IMG/VR virus record: IMGVR_UViG_3300037307_000289
Length of the DNA: 64,000 nucleotides
Strand: one strand, 5' to 3'
DNA from: a virus
Shown: positions 1 to 57,109 of the stretch, piece after piece
Position numbering within the stretch: the stretch's first letter is position 1
Layout: every line of letters starts with the position of its first letter
Notes under the pieces: model-generated
What the model was told of the DNA's origin: nothing
The model's database searches: none
What the model saw: only the letters and a program-made list of their open reading frames with translations
Position numbers and translations under genes: made by a program

Positions 1-168
1 TTCTATGACGAGGATATATCTAAGTTATGCCCTTGTCGAACTTGCATACTTAAATCTCGTTGTTCACAGGTATGTGAAGAAAGATGGAGTCTATATGCAT
101 ACAGGAATGAAACATATGAAGATTATATTAAAAGAGATAATGCCTGGAAGAGTACAAGAAGGAGATAA
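1..168 (+). CDS. 5'-truncated member of the Cys-rich CPC-CLVK mini-protein family (reads ...LCPCRTCILKSRCSQVCEE..., stop at 166-168)
   Basis: Frame 1 from the window edge gives FYDEDISKLCPCRTCILKSRCSQVCEERW..RRR*. This carries the family core C-P-C-x2-C-[IL]-L-K-x2-C-x3-C. The listed ORF 5..193 is in another frame and is probably spurious. Confidence 0.5.
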   Translation, partial: FYDEDISKLCPCRTCILKSRCSQVCEERWSLYAYRNETYEDYIKRDNAWKSTRRR

Positions 169-874
169 GATCTTTCTTTCTTTCTTTGGATAAGGTCCTG
201 GATTCATTATTAGTAAGATAAATGCAAAATCTTTTTTGAACTGAAAAATAGAACTTATCCACATCTCCAATATGATCTGGAAACCGAGCACGTACCTATA
301 CCATGTCTTTTCTTTATATGAGCACTACTTTGTCCTCTTCTGGACGCGCAGCATCTAATTTATTAAAATTTTAGACCGCCCCAAAAAGCGCTCATATGGT
401 GAAGGGAGGGGTCGCCCCTTATGCCCCTATATAACCCCTATACACTATATATATCAATAACTGCATAGAGACGATATCTTGGTCGCCGGATTGAAGGATC
501 CCCAACTGGCATGGACTGGGATAGTCGTCTGTATATGATTGGGATCCATCGGGGATGAAGGGCGCGCCTCATCCCTGCACCCCGGAGGGCGTCCGTGATT
601 ATGATGCCGGACGCCCTCCCCTTAACTATCTTCCAACTCAGTGCCCATCTTCATTTTTTAAAGGAGAGTGTTACATCATTATTAATAAGCTGACTACCCA
701 CAAAAACCGACTTCTAGTACCGAACGGGTTAGCGGCACTATTGAGTATCGGGCGGCATAAAGCTAAAGAGTTTGAGCTATATCCTCTACGGCCTGGAGGG
801 TTGTGCTCCTCATATGCTATTCAGTAAATGCTGATCAGATGCTTCATCAGAGGGTTCCCCGTTAGGGAATTCCC

Positions 875-910
875 AGGCGGGTTTTCTCCTTTCTCCCGCC
901 TGTTTTTTTT
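875..910 (+). terminator. rho-independent terminator: 7-bp GC stem aggcggg/cccgcct, 13-nt loop, then GTTTTTTTT
   Basis: Stem 875-881 pairs with 895-901. A T-tract at 902-910 follows. It closes the GC-rich structured island. Confidence 0.6.
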
Positions 911-983
911 GCTTAAATAGGATGCCGCCCTGGATACTAGATGAGGATGCTATCTATAGGATTTGGAACAAATAAAAAATAAA

Positions 984-1056
984 GTACAGTACAGTACAGT
1001 ACAGTACAGTACAGTACAGTACAGTACAGTACAGTACAGTACAGTACAGTACAGTA
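984..1056. repeat. perfect pentanucleotide microsatellite (GTACA)n, about 14.6 copies
   Basis: Direct reading shows gtaca/acagt reiterated without interruption. It ends 17 nt before the ATG of the 1073 ORF. Confidence 0.95.
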
Positions 1057-1072
1057 GAAAAGGAAGCAACCT

Positions 1073-1318
1073 ATGAAACGTGAAAAGATGGTATCTATAT
1101 ATTTCACTAAAGAAGAGCATGAAGCATTAATGAAGCATATCAATAAGAATACAAATGGATTCAGTCCTAGTGTATCAACATATGTGCGTTCTGTTATTCT
1201 TAAAATGATAAACTCTGAGAAACCCACCGAGACAGCTCCCCCTATAGCGCCCACAGAAAATAAACCAGAAGTCAAATCAAATCAAACGCTTAACTTAGGC
1301 GACCTCTTTAATTTATAA
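1073..1318 (+). CDS. small ribbon-helix-helix (CopG/MobC-like) DNA-binding protein, 81 aa
   Basis: The N-terminus KMVSIYFTKEEHEALMKHI matches the RHH beta-strand plus helix pattern (x-V-x-V-x-L-T-x-E-E-x-E-x-L). An RBS AAAGGAAG lies 8 nt upstream. Confidence 0.5.
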   Translation: MKREKMVSIYFTKEEHEALMKHINKNTNGFSPSVSTYVRSVILKMINSEKPTETAPPIAPTENKPEVKSNQTLNLGDLFNL

Positions 1319-1350
1319 CTAGATTCCGAGCATAATAGAACCAAAAAAAT

Positions 1351-1382
1351 AACCGGGAGAGAATATCCTGCGGTTATTTTTT
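1351..1382 (+). terminator. weak hairpin (aaccg..cggtt) followed by ATTTTTT
   Basis: A short imperfect stem is followed by a T-run just downstream of the RHH gene stop. Confidence 0.3.
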
Positions 1383-1531
1383 GACTGCTATGCCAGAGGG
1401 GAATCTTTCTCACTGGATTACTAGGGACAACCTCTCAGTTTCCATCTCAACTAGGTTGACTAAGTCCAGCTAGGAGTCCAATTTGTTATCTAAACGCACT
1501 AATATGCTATCTAAATGTTTCTACCCTCTCA

Positions 1532-1951
1532 TCATTTAAGATAACAAACTTCATCTAACACCCTGATATAGTTATTCATTAACCCGGGAAGCTTAATAAA
1601 CTTCTCTGGAGCTCTCTTCCCGCGTAAAATCCCTTTCTTTCTCTCACCTGCACGTTTTTCTATCTTATTATCTAACCTAACTAATATAGGATTGTTTCTA
1701 GCAATTAACCCTCTATAAACATCACATCTTATTTTATCTCTTTCGACATCCACTTCACGAATATAATTTGAACGATTATATGCTGCCTTTTCAAATTCTT
1801 CACATACTTGATCGCATGTCACTTTAACTAAGCATTTATGACATGGGCATTTTGGTAGTGTATAGCATCTGATACTTTGAATAGAAATACAATATGGTAC
1901 ATATTGACTGTTATATCTTAGTGATTTACAACCAATGCAAGCTTCAGACAT
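1532..1951 (-). CDS. CPC-CLVK family Cys-rich mini-protein with C-terminal extension (139 aa)
   Basis: N-terminal CIGCKSL; core KCPCHKCLVKVTCDQVC. Confidence 0.7.
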   Translation of the reverse strand: MSEACIGCKSLRYNSQYVPYCISIQSIRCYTLPKCPCHKCLVKVTCDQVCEEFEKAAYNRSNYIREVDVERDKIRCDVYRGLIARNNPILVRLDNKIEKRAGERKKGILRGKRAPEKFIKLPGLMNNYIRVLDEVCYLK

Positions 1952-2189
1952 TGTCTATCTTAGTTCCTTGTCTAACGTAATCTCTTATCATTATTAGTTT
2001 AAAGTTTTTATCATACTCTGGACAAGCATCTACACATACTCCTTTTATTAAACAAGTCATGCAAGGACATCTTGGTATTACTATTCCTTGTTCATCTTCT
2101 CTCATGTAATGCATACAATATAAAGAGGTCTCTGCACTTATGGTATTGGTATATGTTTTACATCCTTTACAACTTGTTTTCTCCATCAC
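1944..2189 (-). CDS. CPC-CLVK family Cys-rich mini-protein (81 aa)
   Basis: N-terminal CKGCKTY; core RCPCMTCLIKGVCVDAC. Confidence 0.7.
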   Translation of the reverse strand: MMEKTSCKGCKTYTNTISAETSLYCMHYMREDEQGIVIPRCPCMTCLIKGVCVDACPEYDKNFKLIMIRDYVRQGTKIDNV

Positions 2190-2399
2190 TTTTCTTTTTC
2201 CTTATTGATATTAGAAAATCCTCACATGCTACTTTACACATTGTCTTAACTAGACATGTATTACTTTAATGAATGGGACCATATGAATCTGCATAGTTGC
2301 AGTAAAATAGCTTGTTTCATATGCTTCCCTATTGCTTATTCTATCTTTACTTTCACACGGTTTACAATAAAAGATTTGGTTACAAATTGAGCATGGCAT
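2190..2399 (-). pseudogene. frameshifted family member: N-terminal MPCSICNQIFYCKPCES (49 aa) in one frame, NTCLVKTMCKVACEDF in another
   Basis: Manual translation of the minus strand. The ATG at 2397-2399 opens a 49-aa fragment with the MPCxxC..KPC N-terminus. The CLVK..C core continues in a -1/+2 frame behind a stop. The CPC triplet is absent. Confidence 0.45.
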
Positions 2400-2405
2400 A
2401 ACCTA

Positions 2406-2639
2406 TCAATCTCTCACTATTCTTTCAATGTAGTTTTCACATATATCTCTACACATTACCTTTACTAAGCAATTAACACAAGGGCACTTATAGTTTAATC
2501 TATATATTTTTCTTATCATTTTATCTGGGTAATAGTGATTTGATGTAGTTGAGTTTAATAAGATTTTTACTTTACCTCTTACTAATTTTGTATTACATGG
2601 TTTAACTTTGAAATGTTTATAACAGTGATTGCATGGCAT
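2406..2639 (-). CDS. CPC-CLVK family mini-protein, MPC subtype (77 aa)
   Basis: MPCNHCYKHFKVKPCN; KCPCVNCLVKVMCRDIC. Confidence 0.7.
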   Translation of the reverse strand: MPCNHCYKHFKVKPCNTKLVRGKVKILLNSTTSNHYYPDKMIRKIYRLNYKCPCVNCLVKVMCRDICENYIERIVRD

Positions 2640-2837
2640 TATAATTTCTCTTGTATTTTTTTAAATTCTTCGCACGCTCGTTCACACATGGACTTAACTA
2701 TGCACTTTCTACATGGGCAATCTGGTATTTTATCCCACATATAAAAAACTTTACAAGTTCCTACACATATTGATTCCTTTATTTCCAGCGCCTTCAAGAA
2801 TCTTTAAAGAGTGACAACCTTCACATTCATTATTCAT
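2639..2837 (-). pseudogene. frameshifted family member: MNNECEGCHSL.. (27 aa) then DCPCRKCIVKSMCERAC in the +1 frame
   Basis: Manual translation. The ATG overlaps the upstream gene's stop (ATGA). The N-terminal CEGC motif and the C-terminal CPC core lie in different frames with no in-frame ATG for the second half. Confidence 0.45.
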
Positions 2838-3112
2838 ATATCCTCTGGTTTAATTTGTCTGCAAAAGTGATACCAAGGAGAACATTGTAATCTCCCTTGT
2901 TCACACATCATTTTAACTAAGCAATCTTTACATGGGCATTCATCTCGTAACCTATAATATCTAGTTTCAAATGTTTCTTTAGTTAAACTCTTTAGAATAT
3001 ATCTTTCTGGTTCATGAGTATAAAACATATCTCCTTTTTTACCATTATAAGGAATACCACTACATGGTCTATTCTCATATACTAGATCACATATTTTACA
3101 AGGCATACCCAA
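2834..3112 (-). CDS. CPC-CLVK family mini-protein, MPC subtype (92 aa)
   Basis: MGMPCKICDLVYENRPC; ECPCKDCLVKMMC. Confidence 0.7.
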   Translation of the reverse strand: MGMPCKICDLVYENRPCSGIPYNGKKGDMFYTHEPERYILKSLTKETFETRYYRLRDECPCKDCLVKMMCEQGRLQCSPWYHFCRQIKPEDI

Positions 3113-3118
3113 TATCCC

Positions 3119-3361
3119 CTAATTAAATTTTAAACCTTCTACTTTAGATAGAAATTCTAAATACTCAGGGCAGTTTAATCTTTTATCTCCACATGCCATT
3201 TTAACCAAACAATTACTACATACACACTGTTCATTTAATAGATTAAAGTAGTTAGTTAGATATTTCTTATTATATATTTCACAAAGTTTATCTATCATTT
3301 TAATTTCTTTACTCTTACATGGGGGGTTCTCATACATTGACTCACAAATATTACAAGGCAC
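3119..3361 (-). CDS. CPC-CLVK family mini-protein, MPC subtype (80 aa)
   Basis: MPCNICESMYENPPC; CVCSNCLVKMAC. Confidence 0.7.
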   Translation of the reverse strand: MPCNICESMYENPPCKSKEIKMIDKLCEIYNKKYLTNYFNLLNEQCVCSNCLVKMACGDKRLNCPEYLEFLSKVEGLKFN

Positions 3362-3668
3362 GTTTTATCACTCTCCATTTACCATTAGAAATATTTTTAA
3401 TAGTAATCACTGAAGTTCCTATTCTTTTTCTCTCTCCGGCACTTAACCCTACAGTATAAGATTCTAATACATCTACTCTTCGTTTTAGATATTCTATAAA
3501 TGGCATACACATAGAGTTGCAGGTAACCTTAACTAAGCATTCTCTACATGGGCATGTTACCATAAACCTAATATATACATTGGTAAACTTACATGAGTTT
3601 AAATTATTTGAATCTTTTACTAGTGAGTTACATCCATTACATTCACTTATTCCTTCTGATCTATTCAT
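3351..3668 (-). CDS. CPC-CLVK family mini-protein (105 aa)
   Basis: CNGCNSL; TCPCRECLVKVTCNSMC. Confidence 0.7.
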   Translation of the reverse strand: MNRSEGISECNGCNSLVKDSNNLNSCKFTNVYIRFMVTCPCRECLVKVTCNSMCMPFIEYLKRRVDVLESYTVGLSAGERKRIGTSVITIKNISNGKWRVIKRAL

Positions 3669-3925
3669 CTTAGTAAAGGTCCTATTAAGAGGTCTTCGTC
3701 CTTAACATTAAGTACTCCATCATAGAATACCATTTTTACTTCTTCAATTTGTTTAGCTATTTCTTCACATCCTTTATGTGAATTACATATAGCTCTAACC
3801 AAACATTTTTTACATGGGCATTTAATTCTTATATCTATATATTTTTCTCTAACTACTTTATGTGCCTCAACAAATGAGCAAGGTCTAACACCAACATGTA
3901 TTCGTTTACACTCGTCACATATCAT
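3665..3925 (-). CDS. CPC-CLVK family mini-protein (86 aa)
   Basis: MICDECKRIH; KCPCKKCLVRAIC. Confidence 0.7.
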   Translation of the reverse strand: MICDECKRIHVGVRPCSFVEAHKVVREKYIDIRIKCPCKKCLVRAICNSHKGCEEIAKQIEEVKMVFYDGVLNVKDEDLLIGPLLR

Positions 3926-4173
3926 TATTTATTCCTTTGTTTGGTAAGCATTTTAATTATATAAGTTCTTTTAATTTTATCTTTATATATTCCTATCTGG
4001 TGTGCCTCATAAAATAAATCACATGGGGTGCTACAAACTGGTTTAACCAGACAATTTTGGCAAGGGCAATCAATGATTTTTTCTGGAACATTTTGGAATA
4101 CTATTTGTTTACATAATTCTTTTTTTAATGAATAGCTATATACAAATGAATTACACCCACTACATTTATTCAT
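3925..4173 (-). CDS. CPC-CLVK family mini-protein (82 aa)
   Basis: CSGCNSF; DCPCQNCLVKPVCSTPC. Confidence 0.7.
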   Translation of the reverse strand: MNKCSGCNSFVYSYSLKKELCKQIVFQNVPEKIIDCPCQNCLVKPVCSTPCDLFYEAHQIGIYKDKIKRTYIIKMLTKQRNK

Positions 4174-4433
4174 CTAGTCCTGACCCATGTTTCAATTCTA
4201 TTTTCAAACTCACCACAGAATTCTTGGCACATTACTTTAATAAGACATTCCTGGCAAGGGCAATATCCGTGTAGTATTCCGTGGATTGTAACTAATTTTC
4301 TACATCCATCATACCCTTGAGATGAATATGTTCTTTCAGTTAGAATAGTATCTGAACTTATTCTAAGTTCGCATGGTAAAATACTATAATATTCTTTACA
4401 TGTTTGACATGGCATTAGATCACCTTGAACCAC
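4170..4433 (-). CDS. CPC-CLVK family mini-protein, MPC subtype (87 aa)
   Basis: MPCQTCKEYYSILPC; YCPCQECLIKVMCQEFC. Confidence 0.7.
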   Translation of the reverse strand: MVQGDLMPCQTCKEYYSILPCELRISSDTILTERTYSSQGYDGCRKLVTIHGILHGYCPCQECLIKVMCQEFCGEFENRIETWVRTR

Positions 4434-4780
4434 AGTTTACATTCATAATCAATTGTTAACTCAGTTCCTTTCTTTATATCATTCAAAGCGTATGCTCTCA
4501 TTAGTTTATTTCTATAGTCTCGTTTTATTCTAACATTAGAATTGTTACTATGATTTAATAGATTTATAGCTCCGAATGAAATAGCATCTTGTTTTTTAGT
4601 CCAATACATAGGATAGTTATTAAAAAATGACTCTTTTTTTACATCATTAAATCCTATTGGTGACACAGCATTAATAACTATTAGCTCATCTTTTTTAATA
4701 TTCTGTGCTGCAACTATACAAAATCCTTTTTTATTGTGAAGTGAAATTTCTATTTTTCCGTCACTGAAAAGTTTTTTCAT
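4415..4780 (-). CDS. minimal SET-domain protein lysine methyltransferase (vSET-like, 121 aa)
   Basis: AISFGAINLLNHSNNSNVR matches the SET NHS(C)xPN pocket motif. KGTELTIDYECKLW matches the E-E-L-T-x-D-Y post-SET motif. Size and layout resemble chlorovirus vSET (119 aa). Recalled from memory, not searched. Confidence 0.75.
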   Translation of the reverse strand: MKKLFSDGKIEISLHNKKGFCIVAAQNIKKDELIVINAVSPIGFNDVKKESFFNNYPMYWTKKQDAISFGAINLLNHSNNSNVRIKRDYRNKLMRAYALNDIKKGTELTIDYECKLWFKVI

Positions 4781-4967
4781 TTTTCTCTCCGAAGAAATAT
4801 TTTGTTTCTATTTCAATTGCACTATCTAATACATCACATGGCTCACTACACATTCCTTTTATAAGACAGATTTTACAGGCGCAATCTTTTATAAGTTTTT
4901 CTAACCTATAACATTTGTTTCTAATGTTATAGTAATAGCATCCTTGACATCCATCAAACTTGTCCAC
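4761..4967 (-). CDS. CPC-CLVK family mini-protein (68 aa)
   Basis: DGCQGC; DCACKICLIKGMCSEPC. Confidence 0.7.
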   Translation of the reverse strand: MDKFDGCQGCYYYNIRNKCYRLEKLIKDCACKICLIKGMCSEPCDVLDSAIEIETKYFFGEKNEKTFQ

Positions 4968-5187
4968 TTTTCTTAGTCCTTGCAGTAATTATTTTAAAGT
5001 TATCACAAGCTGTAATACAAATACCTTTAATAAGACAAGTATTGCATGGGCAAGATTCAATCTCAATAACATCTAGATAAAAAGGATATAGTGATTTACA
5101 ATAATATCTTTTTTTATTTTCATGGTATGCTAAAGATTTACACCCTTCACATTTTTCGGTGTTCATAGGCTGCCTTTTGTAATTCAC
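4954..5187 (-). CDS. CPC-CLVK family mini-protein (77 aa)
   Basis: CEGCKSL; SCPCNTCLIKGICITAC. Confidence 0.7.
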   Translation of the reverse strand: MNYKRQPMNTEKCEGCKSLAYHENKKRYYCKSLYPFYLDVIEIESCPCNTCLIKGICITACDNFKIITARTKKSGQV

Positions 5188-5398
5188 TACATCTTTGTGT
5201 ACATATACCTTTAACTAAGCATTTTCCACAAGGGCAATCTTTAATAAATGATTTTCCCCATATTGCATAGACACATTCTAATATTCTTTTATTTTTCCTA
5301 TCTATCATTACTAGTTTACCTAAATTTTTACATCCTCTACAATGCTTTGGGAAGTTTATATTTCTACATTTGGATTCACTCATTTTAGAAATCATCAT
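5147..5398 (-). CDS. CPC-CLVK family mini-protein (83 aa)
   Basis: CRGCKNL; DCPCGKCLVKGICTQRC. Confidence 0.7.
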   Translation of the reverse strand: MMISKMSESKCRNINFPKHCRGCKNLGKLVMIDRKNKRILECVYAIWGKSFIKDCPCGKCLVKGICTQRCSELQKAAYEHRKM

Positions 5399-5576
5399 CT
5401 ATATCTCTGGTAATGTGATGAAACTTATCGCACCCTTCTTCGCAGACAACTTTAATTAAACAATCTCTGCATGGGCACTCTTGCGCTTTAAACATTTCTA
5501 ATACTTTACAATCTATACCCATATGAAACATAGTACATCCTTCGCAGTCTTTTAGGTATCTCTGTACATGTGTCAT
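5385..5576 (-). CDS. CPC-CLVK family mini-protein (63 aa)
   Basis: CEGCTMF; ECPCRDCLIKVVCEEGC. Confidence 0.7.
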   Translation of the reverse strand: MTHVQRYLKDCEGCTMFHMGIDCKVLEMFKAQECPCRDCLIKVVCEEGCDKFHHITRDIDDDF

Positions 5577-5773
5577 AATAAATTTTCTCTAACTCCTTTC
5601 TTTATTAGTTCATCATATTCTTCACAAGTATTTGTACATACCATCTTTAATAGACATATTTGACATGGGCATTCTTCTGCTTTAACTATACATAATATTT
5701 TGCATCCAACTTGATATTTAACTTCCTGTTCCCCATAGATAAAACACAGTTCACATTCTTTATTGTAATTCAT
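5573..5773 (-). CDS. CPC-CLVK family mini-protein (66 aa)
   Basis: CELCFIY; ECPCQICLLKMVCTNTC. Confidence 0.7.
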   Translation of the reverse strand: MNYNKECELCFIYGEQEVKYQVGCKILCIVKAEECPCQICLLKMVCTNTCEEYDELIKKGVRENLL

Positions 5774-6033
5774 TTTAATCCAACCACTTGTTTATACTCT
5801 TCACACATTTGATCTATTTTACTTGAACAGCACTGCATCTTAACTAAACAGTTTTTGCATGGGCAATATGCATTAAGTTTTTTATATGCCTGAACATAAG
5901 ATGGAATATCAATTATATTGTAGGGTACACTAGTTATATATTTACTGAAAATACCAATAGTAACAGAAGCTTCATCTCGTGGATAATCACATGGACTAAT
6001 CTTAAGAGTATTTTGACAAACTAAACATGGCAT
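5770..6033 (-). CDS. CPC-CLVK family mini-protein, MPC subtype (87 aa)
   Basis: MPCLVCQNTLKISPC; YCPCKNCLVKMQCC. Confidence 0.7.
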   Translation of the reverse strand: MPCLVCQNTLKISPCDYPRDEASVTIGIFSKYITSVPYNIIDIPSYVQAYKKLNAYCPCKNCLVKMQCCSSKIDQMCEEYKQVVGLK

Positions 6034-6036
6034 TGG

Positions 6037-6270
6037 TCACACATGAAATTTTAGAGTCATTCTTTTTATCGCGTTAGTTATTTCAGTTTCAAAGTTTTCT
6101 AAATCTTCACATCTAGCTTGGCAAACTCCTTTTATAATACATTTCTTACATGGGCAATCCTTATATCTAGCTCCTAATGCACAGCATTTTGTATTGAGTT
6201 TTGGGTTGTTAGAGAGACACCCATCACATCCTTCGTAATTTTTCAAGGAGTTTTTCAGTTCTATACGCAT
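6037..6270 (-). CDS. CPC-CLVK family mini-protein (77 aa)
   Basis: YEGCDGC; DCPCKKCIIKGVCQARC. Confidence 0.7.
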   Translation of the reverse strand: MRIELKNSLKNYEGCDGCLSNNPKLNTKCCALGARYKDCPCKKCIIKGVCQARCEDLENFETEITNAIKRMTLKFHV

Positions 6271-6502
6271 CAGTTTCCCTTTTCATTATCATTTCTCTTC
6301 TGTGAAGAAAAAACTCACTGCATTTTTTATTACATGTTACCTTAACTAAACAATCTTTACATACACAGTTAGGAATAAAGTTTAGATCAGATATATTGAA
6401 TAGACATTTATAGTAACCAGGAATCTCTCCGTTATCAACAAATGATCTACACCCTTTACATACTACTAGTTCAGGTTTGTATTCTGATTTGGTGTTCTTC
6501 AT
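6224..6502 (-). CDS. CPC-CLVK family mini-protein (92 aa)
   Basis: CKGCRSF; NCVCKDCLVKVTCNKKC. Confidence 0.65.
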   Translation of the reverse strand: MKNTKSEYKPELVVCKGCRSFVDNGEIPGYYKCLFNISDLNFIPNCVCKDCLVKVTCNKKCSEFFLHRREMIMKRETDAYRTEKLLEKLRRM

Positions 6503-6807
6503 GATCTAAATTTTTCTTTTATTTTTTTAATACCATTATCCTGTAACTTAATAAATACTCTATTTGATGCTAATAGTTCTATATTTAAATATTTTTCACA
6601 TGAAAACACCGAAGGTGGGATACATGACATCTTAACTAAACAATCAATACAAGGGCATTTAACCATCAATATTCTATAAAGTTCTTCAGCAAAATCAAGA
6701 GTTGAATTACCTATAGTTTTATCTACTACCTTATAATTTTCTATAAAATCTAGATTTGTTTTACATGGTTTAATAATATAGTTATCTTGACAAATTTGAC
6801 ATGGCAT
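6499..6807 (-). CDS. CPC-CLVK family mini-protein, MPC subtype (102 aa)
   Basis: MPCQICQDNYIIKPC; KCPCIDCLVKMSC. Confidence 0.7.
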   Translation of the reverse strand: MPCQICQDNYIIKPCKTNLDFIENYKVVDKTIGNSTLDFAEELYRILMVKCPCIDCLVKMSCIPPSVFSCEKYLNIELLASNRVFIKLQDNGIKKIKEKFRS

Positions 6808-7097
6808 TAATTTATTTTACTCCCTTTTACTGTATTTTCAAGAAAATCTTTGTATTTACTACATTTATATTTTGAATAATCACATACTATTTTAACTAGA
6901 CATTCTCTACATGGGCAATCTTTATAAGATTCAGTATAAAATGAAGAAACAAAATCAATCACTTTAGATTTCTTTCCTCTTTTACTAACAAAAAATGTTC
7001 TTTCTTTTATATTCTTAATTCCAGATGGTTCTATTTTTCCTTCTATACTTTCACATGGCTTAACATAAAATACATTTATACAACCTTGGCATGGCAT
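6807..7097 (-). CDS. CPC-CLVK family mini-protein, MPC subtype (96 aa)
   Basis: MPCQGCINVFYVKPC; DCPCRECLVKIVC. Confidence 0.7.
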   Translation of the reverse strand: MPCQGCINVFYVKPCESIEGKIEPSGIKNIKERTFFVSKRGKKSKVIDFVSSFYTESYKDCPCRECLVKIVCDYSKYKCSKYKDFLENTVKGSKIN

Positions 7098-7099
7098 TA

Positions 7100-7306
7100 T
7101 TATCCTCCTGCTAACTCAAACAGTTTTTCTGTCAGTAATTTTTCATCTATATAGAATTTAACTTGTTGCAAAACAAAAATATATTCTTTACAATACTCAC
7201 TACAATTAATTTTTACTAAACAATTTTTACAAGGGCACAATAATTTATTTTGTTTCAGATTGCCTTTAAGAGAGCATATTGTTTCTATTTTGCATCCTTT
7301 ACATAT
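7100..7306 (-). pseudogene. family member lacking a canonical ATG: NICKGCKIETIC...LLCPCKNCLVKINCSEYC...*
   Basis: Manual minus-strand translation of the apparent gap between 7097 and 7299. The open frame holds both family motifs, but the first in-frame sense codon is ATA where other members have ATG. Either a non-canonical start or an inactivated copy. Confidence 0.4.
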
Positions 7307-7622
7307 ATTTCCTCAATTCTTTCTTAGAAAACATTCCAGTAATTTCATCATAATAGAGAACTAAATAACGTTCTATTATATTTCTATATTCTTCACATCT
7401 CTTAGGATATTCTACATTACATGTTGCTTTTACTAAACAATTTCTACATGGGCAGTTGAAATGTAAATCCTTATATACTTTAGTATGAAACACGATAGCA
7501 TTATCACTGTATAATATTGGTCTGAACTCTTTTATTTTTGTAACATCTTTCTCTATTAATATTCCAGTTTCATGTTCACATGGTCTAACTGTATAACTTA
7601 TATCACACGCTGGGCATGGCAT
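7299..7622 (-). CDS. CPC-CLVK family mini-protein, MPC subtype (107 aa)
   Basis: MPCPACDISYTVRPC; NCPCRNCLVKATC. Confidence 0.7.
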   Translation of the reverse strand: MPCPACDISYTVRPCEHETGILIEKDVTKIKEFRPILYSDNAIVFHTKVYKDLHFNCPCRNCLVKATCNVEYPKRCEEYRNIIERYLVLYYDEITGMFSKKELRKYM

Positions 7623-7624
7623 CT

Positions 7625-7897
7625 TTACACCTTAAAGACTGTTTTTAAAACTTCAATTGCTGTCATCCAAGTTGTTCCACTCATAGATGGTTTTAATATT
7701 AATTCTATATAATCTTCACATAAATTATCAGTTTTACACATACTTTTCACTAAACAATCTTTACAAGGGCATGCCTTATTTAATTTTGAGAATGAAAATC
7801 TTACAAATGAATAAGAAACTTGAGGAGTAAAAAGTTTACCACTCTTATATTCACAAGGTTTAAAATTATAAAAATGATCGCAAAATATACAAGGCAT
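7625..7897 (-). CDS. CPC-CLVK family mini-protein, MPC subtype (90 aa)
   Basis: MPCIFCDHFYNFKPC; ACPCKDCLVKSMC. Confidence 0.7.
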   Translation of the reverse strand: MPCIFCDHFYNFKPCEYKSGKLFTPQVSYSFVRFSFSKLNKACPCKDCLVKSMCKTDNLCEDYIELILKPSMSGTTWMTAIEVLKTVFKV

Positions 7898-7905
7898 CGT
7901 TACAC

Positions 7906-8127
7906 CTATTCCTCGTCGTAAACTAGCTTTGATCTAAAATAATTTTCTAGAACATCACAATTATTTTCCTGTGTACAAATCATTTTAACTAAACATGTTC
8001 TACATGGGCATTCAGCTACAAATCTTTTGAATCCTCTCACTGAAAACTTCTCTAATATCTCTTGATCTGTATATTCATGGCACTGTTTTGTATTATCAAA
8101 TCTTAATGCACATTTAACACAGCTCAT
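7906..8127 (-). CDS. CPC-CLVK family mini-protein (73 aa)
   Basis: MSCVKCALRF; ECPCRTCLVKMIC. Confidence 0.7.
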   Translation of the reverse strand: MSCVKCALRFDNTKQCHEYTDQEILEKFSVRGFKRFVAECPCRTCLVKMICTQENNCDVLENYFRSKLVYDEE

Positions 8128-8384
8128 TTCTTTCCTTTCTTAATTAGATCTAGTTCATCAATTAAGATCCAGTTAAATTCAATAGAGAATTGTTTAGTTT
8201 CTATCTTACTTTTAGAGTCTTGGAACAACTTCCGGAATTCGCCTCTCCAGAAGTTGTCCCTCCTCTCTATATATTCATGACAAGAATCAGAACACATAAC
8301 TTTAACTACACAATACATGCAAGGGCAGTTATCTAACGGCGGGCACTTTTCTATTTTTAAACATCCCTGACATTGCTCTTTCAT
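8124..8384 (-). CDS. CPC-CLVK family mini-protein (86 aa)
   Basis: CQGCLKIEKC; NCPCMYCVVKVMCSDSC. Confidence 0.65.
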   Translation of the reverse strand: MKEQCQGCLKIEKCPPLDNCPCMYCVVKVMCSDSCHEYIERRDNFWRGEFRKLFQDSKSKIETKQFSIEFNWILIDELDLIKKGKK

Positions 8385-8583
8385 TTTTTAACTGCTCCCT
8401 CAGTCTTATTCTATGAAATTCATCACAATATTCTTCACATGTTACTTTAACTATGCAATTTTTACATGGACACTTTAACATATCTTTATATTGTATGTAG
8501 CATTTAGAAACTCTAGCTTCAGTTATACACCCTTTACAAGTCTTTCTGAATCTAGGTTTTGTTTTTTTCTTTCCAGACTTCAT
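8329..8583 (-). CDS. CPC-CLVK family mini-protein (84 aa)
   Basis: CKGCITE; KCPCKNCIVKVTCEEYC. Confidence 0.65.
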   Translation of the reverse strand: MKSGKKKTKPRFRKTCKGCITEARVSKCYIQYKDMLKCPCKNCIVKVTCEEYCDEFHRIRLREQLKNERAMSGMFKNRKVPAVR

Positions 8584-8749
8584 TTATTTCCTTCAATGAG
8601 TAGTAGTATTTTTCACAATCTCTATCACATGTAACTTTGACTAGACATAATCTACAGACGCATACCTCAATACCTTCATTAAATACGTAGAACACTCTAC
8701 ATAGTTTTTTCTTTTTATTGTATTTTCTACACCCAAGACAGTCGTTCAT
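8552..8749 (-). CDS. CPC-CLVK family mini-protein (65 aa)
   Basis: CLGCRKY; CVCRLCLVKVTCDRDC. Confidence 0.65.
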   Translation of the reverse strand: MNDCLGCRKYNKKKKLCRVFYVFNEGIEVCVCRLCLVKVTCDRDCEKYYYSLKEINEVWKEKNKT

Positions 8750-9936
8750 TCTTTCATTGATATTACTGGTTTTATTCTGTCAATTATTTCTGCAGTTGGG
8801 TCTATTGCTGCTTCAATTACTTTAGGATCTTTATATGCACCCTTTAATTCATCAGTTGGTAACCTGGAAAAATAGATTCCTTTCTCTTTCATACGGTCGC
8901 TTGCTTCTTTATTAGATAGATTCTCATTAGCCCATTTTCTTGAACCTATACGGCCAGCGCCATGAGGGGCAGAATAGTTCCATTCTCGATTACTTTTACC
9001 TTTACATAGAAGTATTCCGTCCTCCATATTAAATGGAATAATAATTTCCTGATCTTTATATGCAGAGATTGCACCTTTTCTAATAATAAAATCTCTAAAA
9101 TCAACATAGTTATGAACTGAACTAACAATTCTATTTGATACTATACTTTTATTAAGTTCTTTCTTTAATACTTTCATAATTTCTTCCATCATGACTATTC
9201 TATTTACTAGTGCATATGTTTGAGCAATCAGAAGATCAACTAGATAATCAAACATATCTGCTCCCTCTAAATATGACAGAGGATGTTTTCCAGCTTTCTT
9301 CTGATGATAATTTGCACTTTTCAATCCATATTGTCTTGACCCTGAATGAATTGTAATCCAGGTATTCCCAGTAGTTTGTGATTCACCAACTTCAATAAAA
9401 TGATTTCCACCACCAAGAGTTCCTAATGATTTAACTACCCTGTCATAAGCTATACCAAACTTATCACATCTTTCTTTTATAGAATCAACACTTATAAATG
9501 GGGTTATATGTTTAGTTTGAAACTTACTATCATATTTTTCAGTGAATGTGACTAACTGAGGATTTACTAATGCTAAAAGTAATCCTATTCTATATTCAAT
9601 AAAATCCTTATTTACATCTGTACCAAACGGTATAACACTACGGATTAACCCGTCTATGCGCTCAGGAGAGAGATCTTTAAGTGTGCCTTGTCCTATATCA
9701 AATGATAACATTCCACATCCCTTATCGACTCCTATTACGTTTGGGATCACCTTGTTAGGCAACTCCATTGTAAATCCAATGACAGCTCCCTTTCCTGCAT
9801 GAGTATCAGGCATAATTGAAACTGGATTTGTAAATGCTTCATGACTAATAAACTCATATATTTGTTTCATTGTTTCTTCATCAATATTATCAATCAATAC
9901 TAAAGCAGTTGTGTATTTGCCTCTTACTTTAAACAT
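8746..9936 (-). CDS. rtcB: RtcB-family RNA 3'-phosphate/tRNA-splicing ligase (396 aa)
   Basis: Signature RtcB motifs are present: IMPDTHAGKG, GVDKGCGM, GGGNHFIEV and a C-terminal HNYV. Length is typical for the family. Confidence 0.9.
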   Translation of the reverse strand: MFKVRGKYTTALVLIDNIDEETMKQIYEFISHEAFTNPVSIMPDTHAGKGAVIGFTMELPNKVIPNVIGVDKGCGMLSFDIGQGTLKDLSPERIDGLIRSVIPFGTDVNKDFIEYRIGLLLALVNPQLVTFTEKYDSKFQTKHITPFISVDSIKERCDKFGIAYDRVVKSLGTLGGGNHFIEVGESQTTGNTWITIHSGSRQYGLKSANYHQKKAGKHPLSYLEGADMFDYLVDLLIAQTYALVNRIVMMEEIMKVLKKELNKSIVSNRIVSSVHNYVDFRDFIIRKGAISAYKDQEIIIPFNMEDGILLCKGKSNREWNYSAPHGAGRIGSRKWANENLSNKEASDRMKEKGIYFSRLPTDELKGAYKDPKVIEAAIDPTAEIIDRIKPVISMKE

Positions 9937-10196
9937 TACTTTCCTCTCTTTCTTCTTTTTATACTGATATAAGTAACATCGTTTAGAGTTAAATCTTTGT
10001 GCATCTTCCCCATTTTATCCTTTTCTTTACATCTATTCTTACACATTGGTTTGACCACACATGTTTTACATGGGCAATCTTTAAAATATTTCTTAATCAT
10101 CCAACATGCAACTAATAATTCTCCTATAGACCACAGATCTGGGATCTTACATCCTGAGCATTCTTTGTTTGGATTTATTTTTAAGTTCTGCCGCAT
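9936..10196 (-). CDS. CPC-CLVK family mini-protein (86 aa)
   Basis: CSGCKIP; DCPCKTCVVKPMCKNRC. Confidence 0.7.
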   Translation of the reverse strand: MRQNLKINPNKECSGCKIPDLWSIGELLVACWMIKKYFKDCPCKTCVVKPMCKNRCKEKDKMGKMHKDLTLNDVTYISIKRRKRGK

Positions 10197-10389
10197 ATCC
10201 TATTGGGTTACTCCTTAGAAATCTAAAGTCATCACACGAAACATCACACATAGTAATAATCAAACATTTTATACATGGGCATATAGGTCTATTTTCTTTT
10301 GATACCGGGCAAAGTTTGGTTCCATTAGTTTTTATTTGTTGAATATAAGCGGAACAACTTTTACACTCTTCCAGAAATGAACTTTCCAT
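10147..10389 (-). CDS. CPC-CLVK family mini-protein, divergent core (80 aa); first gene of the leftward array
   Basis: CKSCSAY; ICPCIKCLIITMCDVSC. Confidence 0.65.
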   Translation of the reverse strand: MESSFLEECKSCSAYIQQIKTNGTKLCPVSKENRPICPCIKCLIITMCDVSCDDFRFLRSNPIGYAAELKNKSKQRMLRM

Positions 10390-24857: not shown

Positions 24858-26144
24858 TTATTTTACTTTTACCCAATGTCTACCATTAACAGCAACTTGA
24901 TTATTTGGACCCCAAAATTCAGCTGTCTCGGGTTTCTTATAAACTCCTACAATTCGTTCAGGGTATAGAGCTTTTTCTTGATCAGTCATTTTAACTAAGC
25001 TACCATCTGCATCGTTGGTCAATACATCACCAGAAACACATGATGTTGCATCATTAACATAAGCTAAAACCCAACCGCAAACTGCAATAGAGACTTGGGT
25101 TTTATTAGAGTCTTGACCAACACCATAACCAAATGTGTCAGAAGCTATTCCAATAACTGATTTTTGACATCTTTCACTACAAATGTAAGCTCCCTGAAGT
25201 GTATCATAATAACATTTTCCCGCGATAAATTCTGGATCAGCTAAATCTTGAAAATCAGCTATGTCGTTCCATATTGCATTGTAAACTCTAGTTGCATAGA
25301 AGTAACCATCATAATTTAGTCTAGAAGTATTTGTTGGGTCAGTAGATCCTGAATAAAGATATCCAGCAGCTTTATATTCATTATTAATATTTAATGAAGC
25401 ATAACATATAATTGTATCATCAGGATTAATTCTTAATCTTTCATTAGAAACCCCGGAAGCATCGTTAGTCCAAAATCTAATTCTACCAGGTGTTATTCCA
25501 GTACTTACTGTTCCTACCACTTCAGCTAAAATTCTTGCTGCTTGGCTATTGTATGTAGAACCATCATCACAATTCCATACAATACTTCCAATATTATCTG
25601 AATTTGTTAAAGCAGAAAAGCTTTCTGGCGCTGTACTTCTACTTTTTAAGAATCTAAAATATGATTCATTGCCGTCATTACTAAATCTGCCTAGTAACAT
25701 ACTGCTAGCAGAATATGTAGTCCCTAACACCTGAAATATGTAATTGGATCCACCTATTATTAAACCTTCGTCAATATTATAATTAGTTAATCTTCCTAGA
25801 GGAGTCATTTTCCATCTAATAGCATTATCTGTTTTAAATTCAATTTTTCCGCCGGTTACATCTATTACTTCTATGCTTGAATCTCCTTGATATATTTTAT
25901 TTGTTGAAAAGTCACCTATACTAGTATCGACATAACTCTTAACTGCTTTTTCAGTTGGTAATGCAGTATCTGAATTTCCTGCTAAAGTAGTATCAGTAGA
26001 AAATTCATTTATATTTGTTAATGTAGCGTCTAATTGTAAAGAATTAAATAAACCTTTTCTAGTAGCGTCCAAGACCGTGGATGATCCATGAACGATTGTT
26101 TGAGAAGAAGTTAGAACGAGATTTCCGTTTCTAAACTTTGCCAT
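24858..26144 (-). CDS. tail-fiber-like protein (428 aa) carrying one copy of the shared fiber module
   Basis: INEFSTDTTLAGNSDTALPTEKAVKSYVDTSI..KIYQGDSSIEVIDVTG. A GGAGGAAT RBS precedes the ATG. Confidence 0.6.
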   Translation of the reverse strand: MAKFRNGNLVLTSSQTIVHGSSTVLDATRKGLFNSLQLDATLTNINEFSTDTTLAGNSDTALPTEKAVKSYVDTSIGDFSTNKIYQGDSSIEVIDVTGGKIEFKTDNAIRWKMTPLGRLTNYNIDEGLIIGGSNYIFQVLGTTYSASSMLLGRFSNDGNESYFRFLKSRSTAPESFSALTNSDNIGSIVWNCDDGSTYNSQAARILAEVVGTVSTGITPGRIRFWTNDASGVSNERLRINPDDTIICYASLNINNEYKAAGYLYSGSTDPTNTSRLNYDGYFYATRVYNAIWNDIADFQDLADPEFIAGKCYYDTLQGAYICSERCQKSVIGIASDTFGYGVGQDSNKTQVSIAVCGWVLAYVNDATSCVSGDVLTNDADGSLVKMTDQEKALYPERIVGVYKKPETAEFWGPNNQVAVNGRHWVKVK

Positions 26145-26233
26145 GATGGGATTCCTCCGTCAACCTGACCACCTATCTATTGGGAGATAGGACGAGGTGA
26201 AAATATTTATTATTTGTTCTAAAAAATATAATG

Positions 26234-26462
26234 TTATGGCGTTGGAATTGGTAAGTCCAACATTCTTTCAGCAGCAGATTTAATCTTTGCATCTAATACT
26301 ACTTGTTCAACATTAACAGGAATATGTGTAGTGTTTGGATCAGATTTCATTCTTGCTATTTCCATTAAGTGCTTCGGAGTTAGATGCCATAAGATTTTCG
26401 CCATCTTTTACTATAACTTCCGAGGCCTCTAAATAAAGATTGCCATCTTTAATATATGCCAT
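26234..26462 (-). CDS. two overlapping mini-ORFs (40 aa MAYIKDGNLYLEASEV.. and 38 aa MKSDPNTTHIPVNVEQ..), possibly one frameshifted small gene
   Basis: Manual translation. ATG/TGA overlap ATGAAATCTGA. Below the ORF-track size cutoff. Confidence 0.2.
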
Positions 26463-26464
26463 AG

Positions 26465-26839
26465 TTAAATCCCCGCTTTAATTATTACTTGAGGCTTAGT
26501 TGGCCACACTGGTTTTTCTGGGTCAGTTGTATTCTTAGGTAAATCTCTCAATGCTTTTCTGTACATTGTTATATCAATTTGTTCTTGTTCGTTATATCTT
26601 GAAAAGACATCTGGAAGTACCATAAAATCAGTTCTATTTAATATTACATCTCTTTCCAATCTTAATTTTTCATATGCTTTGTCTTTTAGTTCTTGTTCAG
26701 TGAATTCTGGATCAGGAACGTTTCCATTTGATAACCATTCTTTGTATGCAATCCAATCATAATTTGCATCATCATTTGGAATAAAACATGTAGTTTCAGT
26801 ATTCTGAACTCCAGATGAAGTTATTTTATATTTTGCCAT
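26465..26839 (-). CDS. tail fiber assembly (Tfa-like) chaperone (124 aa)
   Basis: C-terminal MYRKALRDLPKNTTDPEKPVWPTKP matches the Tfa motif W..YR..L..VD.......WP..P (lambda Tfa sequence recalled from memory). Sits directly downstream of a fiber gene. Confidence 0.5.
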   Translation of the reverse strand: MAKYKITSSGVQNTETTCFIPNDDANYDWIAYKEWLSNGNVPDPEFTEQELKDKAYEKLRLERDVILNRTDFMVLPDVFSRYNEQEQIDITMYRKALRDLPKNTTDPEKPVWPTKPQVIIKAGI

Positions 26840-26850
26840 TTTTAAACTCC

Positions 26851-27918
26851 TTATGAAATCTCACATGATGCAGTCCAGTTACATACCATACTCAAGGTAG
26901 CTGCTACATTTACTGTTCCATACCAATAGAATCCTGTTGTACTAACAGTTGGTGTTCCAGCATTATAATCTGTATTATTTGTCCAACTACGAACTTTTCC
27001 TGCTGCACCAGTATCAGTAGAATATATAGTAACTGTGGGGGTATAACATTTTTCAACTGCAAATTTAACGTCTGCTCCACCTGTTCCTATTGTTGAAGCT
27101 CCTCCAACACTAAGATATTCTAAAGCACAACCATTTGATGTTATAGTACCTGGTGCTGTAAACATATTATAACTTTTTTCGTAATATCGTTTACACAAGT
27201 TCCCTTCTTTATTTAAAGTTCTTAATTCAAACGGGGTTGGTTGTGAACCAACTTCTAATTGAACACCTATCATATAAAATGCATTATTTATTGCTGACAA
27301 TAGATTTGCTTGATTTGGTCCATAATAATAATTACCTGAAAGCCAAGTATTAAATGTAGAAGTTAGTGCGTTACCCGGAGCTACATCCCAGCATATATTT
27401 ACACCACGATCATTAGTTGACCCAAATGTTACACCAGATGAAGGAAATGTTATTGGAATTACAACATAAGTCCATACAGAATTAGGCATTGTATAAGGAA
27501 CAACATACGAATAGTTACTACTTGTCCCTCTAAATGCAACATAATAAGTTCCGGGATTATTAGTCCATGCCCAAAAACTTAAAACACAACTTTTTCCTTT
27601 TATATAATTAAAGTCATATCCTTCAACAGAATATAATATTGCTACCCATTGAGCTGTGCCTGTAGCAGAGCAATAAACTTGTAATGGAGAATGAATAAAT
27701 GGGGCATCTGCTGGTGGTGTACCTGTTTGTCTATATCCAACTGTTCCAGTCAAAGACCCAGTTTCTAAACTGAATCTATCAGGCAAGAAGTTTGATGTAG
27801 TTCCAGTTATTCCAGAAAGTGTAGTTCCTCTTTGCCATATTTGCATCGCGCCGTTTATAATTAGGTTTCTTCTATAAGGATTTTGTAAAACAGTATTTTG
27901 TATTTTTGTTAAAGACAT
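26851..27918 (-). CDS. tail-fiber tip / receptor-binding paralog 1 (355 aa)
   Basis: Family blocks: MSLTKIQN..NLIINGAMQIWQRGT, GVQLEVGS.PT.FE and L.LCKRYYEKSY. Confidence 0.6.
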   Translation of the reverse strand: MSLTKIQNTVLQNPYRRNLIINGAMQIWQRGTTLSGITGTTSNFLPDRFSLETGSLTGTVGYRQTGTPPADAPFIHSPLQVYCSATGTAQWVAILYSVEGYDFNYIKGKSCVLSFWAWTNNPGTYYVAFRGTSSNYSYVVPYTMPNSVWTYVVIPITFPSSGVTFGSTNDRGVNICWDVAPGNALTSTFNTWLSGNYYYGPNQANLLSAINNAFYMIGVQLEVGSQPTPFELRTLNKEGNLCKRYYEKSYNMFTAPGTITSNGCALEYLSVGGASTIGTGGADVKFAVEKCYTPTVTIYSTDTGAAGKVRSWTNNTDYNAGTPTVSTTGFYWYGTVNVAATLSMVCNWTASCEIS

Positions 27919-27920
27919 AT

Positions 27921-29003
27921 TTATGCCTCTCCAAGTTCACATCTTGCAGTCCATTGAGTACCAAAACTATGTCCAGCTATAGCTGTATGAGGAGCTGCCC
28001 AATAAAACCCTTTAGTATTAGGATTAGAAGATGTTACTGTATGGTCTGTTGAGTTACTCCATAAATATGCTTTACCAGATGTTCCTGTAGCAGGGGAATA
28101 ATATGTAATTCCTGGTGTTGCTCTTTTTTCTACTCTGAAATTTTGATAAGATCCAAATGCTGCTACACTTGATGCTGCATCTACTCCTAAATAATCCCAT
28201 ATCATTCCAGGAACTTCATTAGAGGCACCTGGTATTGCTCCTAACTGATAGCTTTTTTCATAATACCTCTGACACAATCTTAATTCTTCTTCTTGACTTT
28301 TAAATTCAAAATCTGTAGCTTTATCTCCTATTTCTAATTGAACTCCTGTTAAATAATAACCAGCACCATTAGTAGCTGCTGCATTTACAATATTTGATGG
28401 AGCTGAAACATTGCCTGTAGTCCATTGATTTAAATTGCTTGTATAATATGTAGACCCACAAGCTAAAATCCAGTAAATAACTAACCCAACTCCATTAGTT
28501 GTATCAAATGTACCACCAGGAGAATTAAATATTATAGGTATTTCTACTTTTGTCCATGTTCCAGAAGGTAAAAGGTATGGAGCAACATAACTATAAGTTG
28601 ACATATTATCTTTAAAAACTACTGCATAAGTACCAGATATAGTAGTCCAACACCAAAAACTTAGTACACATTGCTGATTTTTTAAATAGTTATAATCATA
28701 TCCTTCAACATAATATCCTATTAAAATCCATTGCCCTGCCCCAACAGATGAATCAGCAGTTGGAAAAAGACAAGCCAATGGAGTAGTAAATCCTGTTGGA
28801 GGAGTTCCTGACTTATTGTATGTAATTACTGCATCAGTATTTTCACTAATAAAAAATCTATCTGCCAAATATTTAGTTCCAGAATTTCCTGTTATTCCTG
28901 TTAATGAAGTTCCACGCTGCCAAATTTTCATATCTCCATTAATAATGAAGTTCTTTTTTGAAGCATACTGAATTAATTTATTATTAATTTTAGTTAAACT
29001 CAT
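27921..29003 (-). CDS. tail-fiber tip paralog 2 (about 360 aa). The start is placed at the internal MSLTKINN; the track ORF extends to 29090.
   Basis: The N-terminus MSLTKINNKLIQ..NFIINGDMKIWQRGTS aligns with the other paralog starts. The 29-aa upstream extension overlaps paralog 3. Confidence 0.6.
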   Translation of the reverse strand: MSLTKINNKLIQYASKKNFIINGDMKIWQRGTSLTGITGNSGTKYLADRFFISENTDAVITYNKSGTPPTGFTTPLACLFPTADSSVGAGQWILIGYYVEGYDYNYLKNQQCVLSFWCWTTISGTYAVVFKDNMSTYSYVAPYLLPSGTWTKVEIPIIFNSPGGTFDTTNGVGLVIYWILACGSTYYTSNLNQWTTGNVSAPSNIVNAAATNGAGYYLTGVQLEIGDKATDFEFKSQEEELRLCQRYYEKSYQLGAIPGASNEVPGMIWDYLGVDAASSVAAFGSYQNFRVEKRATPGITYYSPATGTSGKAYLWSNSTDHTVTSSNPNTKGFYWAAPHTAIAGHSFGTQWTARCELGEA

Positions 29004-30088: not shown

Positions 30089-30090
30089 TT

Positions 30091-31647: not shown

Positions 31648-31696
31648 TAAATCAGTCCTCCTTTATAGTTCTGCACTAAATAAAACATAACCACCA

Positions 31697-32728: not shown

Positions 32729-32743
32729 ACTTTTATCTCCAAA

Positions 32744-33835: not shown

Positions 33836-33847
33836 TACTAATCCTCT

Positions 33848-56890: not shown

Positions 56891-57109
56891 ATGAAACCAA
56901 AAACTTGTGACGGTTGTACTAGATGGTCTAATTTTTTTCATGGTTGTACATTTTTTGCAGATTCATTAGAAGATATGTATATATGTCCATGTCAAGATTG
57001 TCTAGTAAAACCCATGTGTAAAACAGGAATTATTTGCCCTGTATTTAGAAAAAGAGTAGATGAATATTTTGGATTACAAAAGGGATTGAAATACCCGGAG
57101 GAGAAATGA
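56891..57109 (+). CDS. CPC-CLVK family mini-protein on the plus strand (72 aa)
   Basis: CDGCTRW; ICPCQDCLVKPMCKTGIIC. Stop overlaps the next ATG. Confidence 0.7.
   Translation: MKPKTCDGCTRWSNFFHGCTFFADSLEDMYICPCQDCLVKPMCKTGIICPVFRKRVDEYFGLQKGLKYPEEK

Follow-up and report, generated by a model that had tools for sequence, protein, structure and literature searches.

A GC-rich, foldable non-coding island in a novel tailed phage is a candidate orphan RNA unit

A compositionally foreign island in the genome of a novel large tailed phage is non-coding, folds better than expected by chance, and ends in an intrinsic terminator on the + strand. We tentatively read it as an orphan, self-contained non-coding RNA unit with a terminator of its own, effectively a moron that makes only RNA, a reading that we regard as possible rather than probable. 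It is favored by the lack of coding capacity, by a composition like that of structural RNAs in an AT-rich genome, by an outlying foldability, by the + strand terminator, and by a promoter-like site at the compositional boundary (Table 1). From these features we infer that the island is transcribed, that RNA is its functional product, and that this RNA may have a role in trans. The anomaly is real and its boundaries are clear, and judged from its sequence the island appears to be a fair candidate for a non-coding RNA, one that lies outside every known family.

TABLE 1 Features of the gap and of its downstream neighbors, in window positions
Feature	Position	Strand	Details
Non-coding gap	169-1072		904 nt; from ORF lists, six-frame translation, and a crude gap list
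Inverted repeat ATATGAGCACT / AGCGCTCATAT	316-326 / 387-397	+	Encloses the promoter-like site
Sigma-70-like promoter	341-369	+	TGGACG-17-TAAAAT; 9/12 consensus matches
Predicted non-coding transcript body, GC-rich	375-910	+	~536 nt; predicted from promoter and terminator
Hairpin GGGAUGA...UCAUCCC	552-575	+	7 bp (552-558/569-575) plus an inner GC stem
Perfect GC-rich hairpin	584-619	+	12 bp (584-595/608-619), 12-nt loop, no T run after it
Long-range helix	745-758 / 922-938	+	9 perfect bp (GGGCGGCAU/AUGCCGCCC) plus 6 more
Hairpin with two G-U pairs and a C-rich 3' arm	852-872	+	8 bp; directly before the terminator
Intrinsic terminator	874-910	+	8-bp stem (874-881/895-902), 13-nt pyrimidine-rich loop (UUUUCUCCUUUCU), T8 at 903-910
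Promoter-like motif copy TTTRGAACAAAWA	962-974	+	Upstream of the AGTAC repeat and the RHH gene
Perfect (AGTAC) pentanucleotide repeat	983-1056	+	14.8 copies; between the promoter motif and the RHH start codon
RHH-like ORF, orphan	1073-1318	+	81 aa; Pfam RHH_7 E = 6e-5, NikA-like E = 1.5e-4
Bidirectional terminator	1344-1382		12-bp perfect hairpin between an A run and a T run

Composition and coding capacity of the gap

The window, the whole stretch of 64,000 nucleotides that was analyzed, covers most of the length of a 64.8-kb metagenomic contig from a tailed phage with a GC content of about 33%. It encodes an RtcB RNA ligase, radical-SAM proteins, many tail-fiber paralogues, a 1415-aa collagen-repeat protein, and a 2337-aa protein whose matches were only patchy (28 to 48% identity). 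The tail-fiber paralogues form a run at 24858 to 34999 (those at 24858, 26851, 27921, 30091, and 31697 match phrog_4492 or other tail-fiber families), which adjoins the genes of the collagen-repeat and 2337-aa proteins. No close relative of the phage was found among 50,697 deposited phage genomes. Its genes are otherwise tightly packed, and the gap that holds the island was the longest real one found in the window by a crude gap list. On the left, the gap begins after the stop codon, at 168, of a small + strand Cys-rich ORF that is whole in locus L001; on the right, it is bounded by the RHH-like ORF. Arrays of Cys-rich paralogues converge on it, on the + strand from upstream (L001) and on the − strand from downstream, starting at 1532.

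The island (340-909) has a GC content of 0.48. Over all 570-nt windows of the 64 kb (mean, 0.333; standard deviation, 0.046), GC reaches its maximum of 0.49 in the one starting at 374. The earlier note had set this GC richness against a background of roughly 30%; the richness holds (0.48 to 0.49), but the background is 33%. The observed-to-expected ratio of CpG is near expectation in the island, 0.82 versus 0.40 in the whole window, where CpG is strongly depleted and falls to 0.24 in some 4-kb blocks. The island is compositionally foreign to the phage. Elsewhere in the window, a + strand block at 52 to 60 kb shows less depleted CpG (0.61 to 0.65) and a higher GC3 (0.30 to 0.49), which suggests a module with a different history.

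The segment is non-coding. Six-frame translation revealed stops in all six frames of the island, and Pfam recognized no family in its ten stop-free fragments (best E value, 0.057). More broadly, Pfam, PHROGs, and NCBIfam returned nothing for the island on the ORFs tested. A 90-aa ORF at 555 to 827 had been listed before and judged probably not coding. It is present, and the judgment is borne out by broken frames, by the absence of Pfam and PHROG matches, and by a HMMER search of 1.84 billion representative proteins that retrieved only the ORF itself. No spaced Shine-Dalgarno sequence precedes its ATG. GC content varies little across the three codon positions of the ORF (0.55/0.46/0.45), and its GC3 is not low like that of phage genes (0.45 versus 0.12 to 0.23 in six genes of the same phage). 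A small protein gene missed by annotation, corresponding to this ORF or to a shorter one, is thus very improbable, even though the ORF exists and the gene caller of one assembly called it; four other assemblies left it uncalled. A protein-coding gene was rejected on these grounds, with neither homologues nor a phage-like codon bias.

Folding, transcription signals, and downstream neighbors

The region from 310 to 950 has a minimum free energy (MFE) of −224.0 kcal/mol on the + strand (z = −4.47). Ten control windows of equal length gave z scores from +1.5 to −2.2, which makes the region a true outlier in foldability. The predicted body alone (375-910) has an MFE of −186.2 kcal/mol (z = −3.84). 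On the + strand, the excess folding is concentrated in two segments, 545-625 (z = −4.4) and 850-910 (z = −3.3), whereas 375-550 (z = −1.3) and 620-860 (z = +0.7) fold no better than shuffles. The description of the island as hairpin-dense therefore fits the region as a whole (z of about −4.5) but not the latter two segments taken alone, and these roughly 400 nt of the body, individually at shuffle level, weigh against an RNA unit.

Two of the stems reported earlier, the GGGATGA/TCATCCC pair at 552-575 and the perfect 12-bp stem at 584-619, were found as described. In 1,000 dinucleotide shuffles of the island, no 12-bp perfect stem arose, and the 64 kb contain only three, the other two being terminators with T runs. 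The 584-619 hairpin was itself rejected as an intrinsic terminator, having no U tract: its stem is followed by CCTTAACTATCTTCC on the + strand and by GGGGTGCAGGG on the − strand. A further pair, GGATCCC/GGGATCC, does exist, with its arms at 496-502 and 541-547 and not at the limits of 500-547 given before. It is the weakest of the listed hairpins, since GGATCC is palindromic on its own and the pair is absent from the MFE fold. In the MFE fold of 310-950, the inverted repeat around the promoter-like site forms a closing stem. The long-range helix closes a multi-hairpin domain that holds the terminator hairpin (z = −3.04 for the fold of 700-975), and the location of its 3' partner implies that the structured region extends past 910.

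The strand preference in folding is modest. The − strand of 310-950 reaches an MFE of −218.1 kcal/mol (z = −3.63), and removal of the two perfect hairpins leaves a z of −1.6 on the + strand and +0.7 on the − strand. These two differences, together with a hairpin followed by T8 on the + strand only, favor the + strand. Two aspects of the fold nevertheless argue against an RNA unit: the − strand folds almost as well, and the strongest stems are perfect Watson-Crick palindromes, a feature commoner in terminators or protein-binding sites than in folded functional RNAs. Both fit a DNA-level cis element, in which protein-bound palindromes (operators, or a partition-like or packaging site) at the junction of the arrays would cooperate with the RHH protein and the AGTAC repeat. 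The position of the island, at the convergence of + and − strand arrays of small genes, and the RHH-like gene and perfect 5-bp tandem array directly downstream, with two AGTAC units spanning about one helical turn, point the same way. We still consider such an element somewhat unlikely, because the T8 behind the last hairpin is a signal that acts in RNA, folding is slightly more favorable on the + strand, the RHH assignment lies under the Pfam threshold, the island has no iteron-like repeats, and no replication, partition-ATPase, terminase, or integrase gene lies nearby. A replication origin with iterons was rejected: the repeats are of 8 to 13 nt and in two copies only, and no replication gene was found within 8 kb.

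The canonical terminator that the earlier note placed at 875 to 910 has the stem and the T8, but its stem begins at 874. Six of its eight pairs are G-C and the T8 directly follows the stem, as expected of an intrinsic terminator; there is no T run on the − strand side, which makes it one-directional. The pattern scanner, with a loop limit of 8, left this terminator with its 13-nt loop unlisted. No terminator-like site was detected from the upstream stop at 168 as far as 874, and transcription entering from upstream would therefore be carried through the island.

The promoter-like site lies in an AT-rich stretch just 5' of the GC-rich body, which starts at 374. It is weak evidence, because sigma-70-like matches occur at chance frequency in the phage genome (they are not enriched over shuffles). 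This, and the absence of the phage's own promoter motif upstream of the island, count against an RNA unit. G346A, the only substitution in the island among the contigs that carry it, changes the −35 hexamer to TGGACA, an anecdotal observation.

Combined with the T8 terminator, the promoter-like site predicts an untranslated + strand RNA of about 535 nt, which would start near 375. Transcription could start at the 341-369 promoter, continue in from the upstream Cys-rich gene, or do both, and most transcripts would stop at the hairpin-plus-U8 terminator. The RNA would open with an extended hairpin domain at its 5' end, continue with the tandem GC hairpins (552-575, then 584-619), and finish with a 3' module in which two hairpins carry C/U-rich loops. 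In read-through transcripts, a closing helix between 745-758 and 922-938 could be added. A possible, speculative role in trans would be for the pyrimidine-rich terminator loop and the C-rich hairpin beside it to base-pair with Shine-Dalgarno regions, among them the one in front of the RHH gene.

Downstream of the terminator lies a copy of TTTRGAACAAAWA, a motif found 11 times in the window versus 2.1 times expected (962-974, 19536, 26211, 46420, 51213, 51414, 52070, and others). The exact copies checked, like several one-mismatch copies, sit shortly upstream of gene starts, and the motif is probably the phage's own, perhaps late, promoter. A variant of it also precedes a 137-aa ORF in L001. 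Assemblies from different samples vary in the length of the AGTAC array (+1 or +2 units), and one has a single substitution in it; the array may be a phase-variable 5' untranslated region or an array of RHH binding sites. The RHH-like protein was the only match to itself among 5.8 billion proteins, and its RHH_7 and NikA-like matches both fall below the Pfam curated cut-off. By eye, we take its end (...SNQTLNLGDLFNL) to resemble a beta-clamp-binding motif of the QLxLF type. The bidirectional terminator closes both the RHH unit and the converging − strand gene array.

This arrangement raises the alternative of a cis-regulatory leader of the RHH gene, in which the terminator would be conditional and read-through would form the 745-758/922-938 helix and run via the repeat into the RHH ORF. 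The helix does span the terminator, the island and the RHH gene lie on the same strand with a common final terminator (1344-1382), and 880-892, in the terminator loop and stem, is 77% complementary to the RHH ribosome-binding region (1059-1071). RNA duplex statistics for the post-terminator complementarity were marginal (z of about −2.8). We find a leader decidedly unlikely, given that 163 nt separate the terminator from the start codon downstream, a longer distance than attenuators typically have, that a leader of about 700 nt would be extreme for an 81-aa gene, that no riboswitch or leader family matched, and that a separate copy of the phage promoter motif precedes the RHH gene.

Searches for relatives

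A search of the whole window with cmscan against Rfam, as proposed by the earlier note, gave no match at gathering scores to any of the 4227 models of Rfam 15, which include tmRNA, RNase P, 6S, SRP, group I and II introns, small ribozymes, ROOL, GOLLD, HEARO, OLE, and riboswitches. The absence of an Rfam match argues against an RNA unit. At E ≤ 10, positions 150 to 1500 yielded only noise (microRNA models on the AGTAC repeat, LhrC at 18.9 of 110 bits, and mir-929 on 584-619). ARAGORN predicted no tRNA or tmRNA gene in the window, and the two empty searches agree with the earlier observation that signatures of tRNA, tmRNA, and RNase P were not apparent. The suggestion of an ncRNA, an intron or ribozyme remnant, or acquired DNA can be narrowed: the non-coding and structured character and the foreign composition stand, whereas the intron or ribozyme part is not supported, with no Rfam match and no flanking gene interrupted. 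A self-splicing intron was likewise rejected, as no intron model matched and the flanking ORFs are complete; the ORF ending at 168 has the normal C terminus of the Cys-rich family, and the RHH ORF starts at 1073.

In distant mode, BLASTN matched the island to no INPHARED phage and to no PLSDB plasmid, scans of IMG/VR with the RHH protein and the hairpin pattern gave no match, and a scan of JGI metagenomes with the two-hairpin pattern recovered only the same phage contig. A scan of GTDB genomes with the 584-619 hairpin returned 43 matches, mostly in Actinomycetota, which were rejected as homologues: they are generic GC-rich, terminator-like hairpins, and nhmmer detected no similarity in their flanks. 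Exact-protein look-ups identified six other contigs with the island, from several samples, matching the window at 99.5 to 99.98%. They differ only by G346A, one substitution in the repeat, and the repeat copy number. The phage is present in the JGI samples 3300043174, 3300037308, 3300043241, and 3300009455, in SRA SRR12687343, and in ENA ERZ27245496. Copies so alike carry no covariation signal, and as no homologue turned up in any resource searched, covariation and conservation lend the RNA unit no support, which counts against it. Two short contigs, L005 (JGI assembly) and L055 (ENA assembly), both start exactly at window position 274 (GATC...) and both have G346A; their shared start probably reflects the same reads assembled twice and not a biological end.

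Neighboring genes were also followed as routes to relatives. RtcB led to unrelated phages only, the profile of the Cys-rich family to two array-only contigs without the island, and the SET-domain gene described below to a bacterial contig, not a phage. For the ORF at 3119-3361, a relative with 74% identity occurs in one sample. A back-translated Cys-rich motif reached a related phage in IMG/VR (L061/L062; IMGVR_UViG_3300037468_000575). The 24 kb examined contain a single co-directional Cys-rich array, which adjoins a terminase-like gene, and lack any GC-rich island. The lack of a counterpart in these 24 kb of a relative with the same array weighs against an RNA unit. In the gap upstream of its array, this relative has an inverted repeat of about 18 bp (GGAGGTCTTGATTGAGTC...GACTCAAATCAAGACCTC; L061, 10772-10871), which nhmmer did not relate to the island by sequence. 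The island seems to be confined to this phage lineage.

The arrays themselves consist of a very large family of small (50 to 140 aa) paralogous proteins with an N-terminal CxxC and the motif CPCxxC[LIV][VI]K-x2-C-x3-C. Its members occur at 28 to 10300 of the window (with the − strand array at 1532-10300), at 56984 and 62775, and at 1 to 4096 of L001; there are 32 copies in the window and 22 in L001, which partly overlap. The members tested had no Pfam, PHROG, or NCBIfam match. Some related contigs are almost wholly made of Cys-rich genes, with about 75 small ORFs in 20 kb of L010 and about 25 copies each in L011 and in the IMG/VR relative. Inside the array of the window lies a SET-domain gene (4415-4780, − strand) that shares 58% identity with one on a bacterial contig of 146 kb from a metagenome (ENA GROS21; GC, 39%; CpG ratio, about 1.0) carrying DnaE, ThrRS, and RpoB. 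A more distant relative is a Candidatus Doudnabacteria protein. The SET matches tentatively point to a host among uncultivated groundwater bacteria, perhaps within the Candidate Phyla Radiation.

The same searches bear on whether the island is simply non-functional foreign DNA, a decayed remnant of an acquired gene or mobile element kept by chance between two terminators. This is unlikely, although GC and CpG contents set the island apart from the rest of the phage, the RHH ORF next to it is an orphan as well, the examined part of the related phage lacks the island, and generic terminator hairpins in high-GC bacteria have the same sequence as the 584-619 stem. Searches in every frame returned no similar protein or DNA, the island has neither the terminal inverted repeats typical of mobile elements nor a second copy elsewhere in the window, and the genes of the phage are otherwise closely spaced. 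Moreover, a folding z score far outside those of the ten controls is unexpected for a decaying sequence. A second copy, a DGR template, and a mobile element were all rejected, as no part of 194-1072 is repeated in the window at word size 7. Nor did the upstream 137-aa ORF show, by eye, any obvious resemblance to an IS200/TnpA-type neighbor.

Comparison with known systems

In AT-rich genomes, structured RNAs are enriched in long GC-rich gaps; in a study of such intergenic regions, about 20% became ncRNA candidates and about a quarter were unclassifiable (PMC6429828), a base rate that advises caution on the RNA call. Like the outliers of this pipeline, from the Breaker laboratory, the island is the longest and most GC-rich gap of a low-GC, packed genome, is non-coding, and folds beyond chance. 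Unlike them, it has no homologues, whose comparison the pipeline uses for validation, and it would fall in the class of unnamed regions with insufficient evidence (PMC6429828). It shows the limit of composition-based ncRNA calls when homologues are absent.

The last 100 nt or so resemble, only by analogy, the Listeria sRNA LhrC (RF00616) and other Gram-positive sRNAs with C-rich loops. As in these, the 3' module (812-910) places two hairpins before a U tract and has UCCC and CUCC motifs in or next to its loops, an arrangement by which LhrC-type sRNAs pair with ribosome-binding sites. The cmscan score of 18.9 bits against a gathering score of 110 (E = 7.3) is noise and not membership, and the 3' module, unlike LhrC, is only the end of a far longer unit.

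ROOL (about 580 nt) and GOLLD (about 800 nt) are large structured RNAs associated with phages. To our knowledge, large phage-encoded RNAs are rare, and several, including these two, still have no known function. The island shares with them the size range, the phage context, and the absence of an adjacent gene that would explain it. It differs in having no Rfam 15 match at gathering scores, nor any to a large-RNA family at E ≤ 10, in the lack of significant local structure over much of its body, and in being dominated by long perfect hairpins and not by many short conserved helices. We regard it as improbable that the island founds an undescribed class of large (about 0.55 to 0.65 kb) structured RNA acting in trans during infection, for instance by sequestering ribosome-binding sites or a host protein. 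On this reading, its carrier would be a large tailed phage of deep novelty that infects an uncultivated bacterium from groundwater, perhaps a member of the Candidate Phyla Radiation. If it is transcribed and functional, it would be a large phage-encoded non-coding RNA without known relatives, in a phage lineage that is itself almost unsampled.

Phage morons are independent promoter-gene-terminator units of atypical base composition. Of their features, the island has the terminator and the atypical composition, its promoter being a weak 9/12 consensus match at chance level. Unlike typical morons, it has no credible ORF, and would be an RNA-only or a decayed one. As in morons, a promoter-like site marks its 5' compositional boundary and a factor-independent terminator its 3' end, its GC and CpG contents differ from those of its flanks, and it is inserted between unrelated genes.
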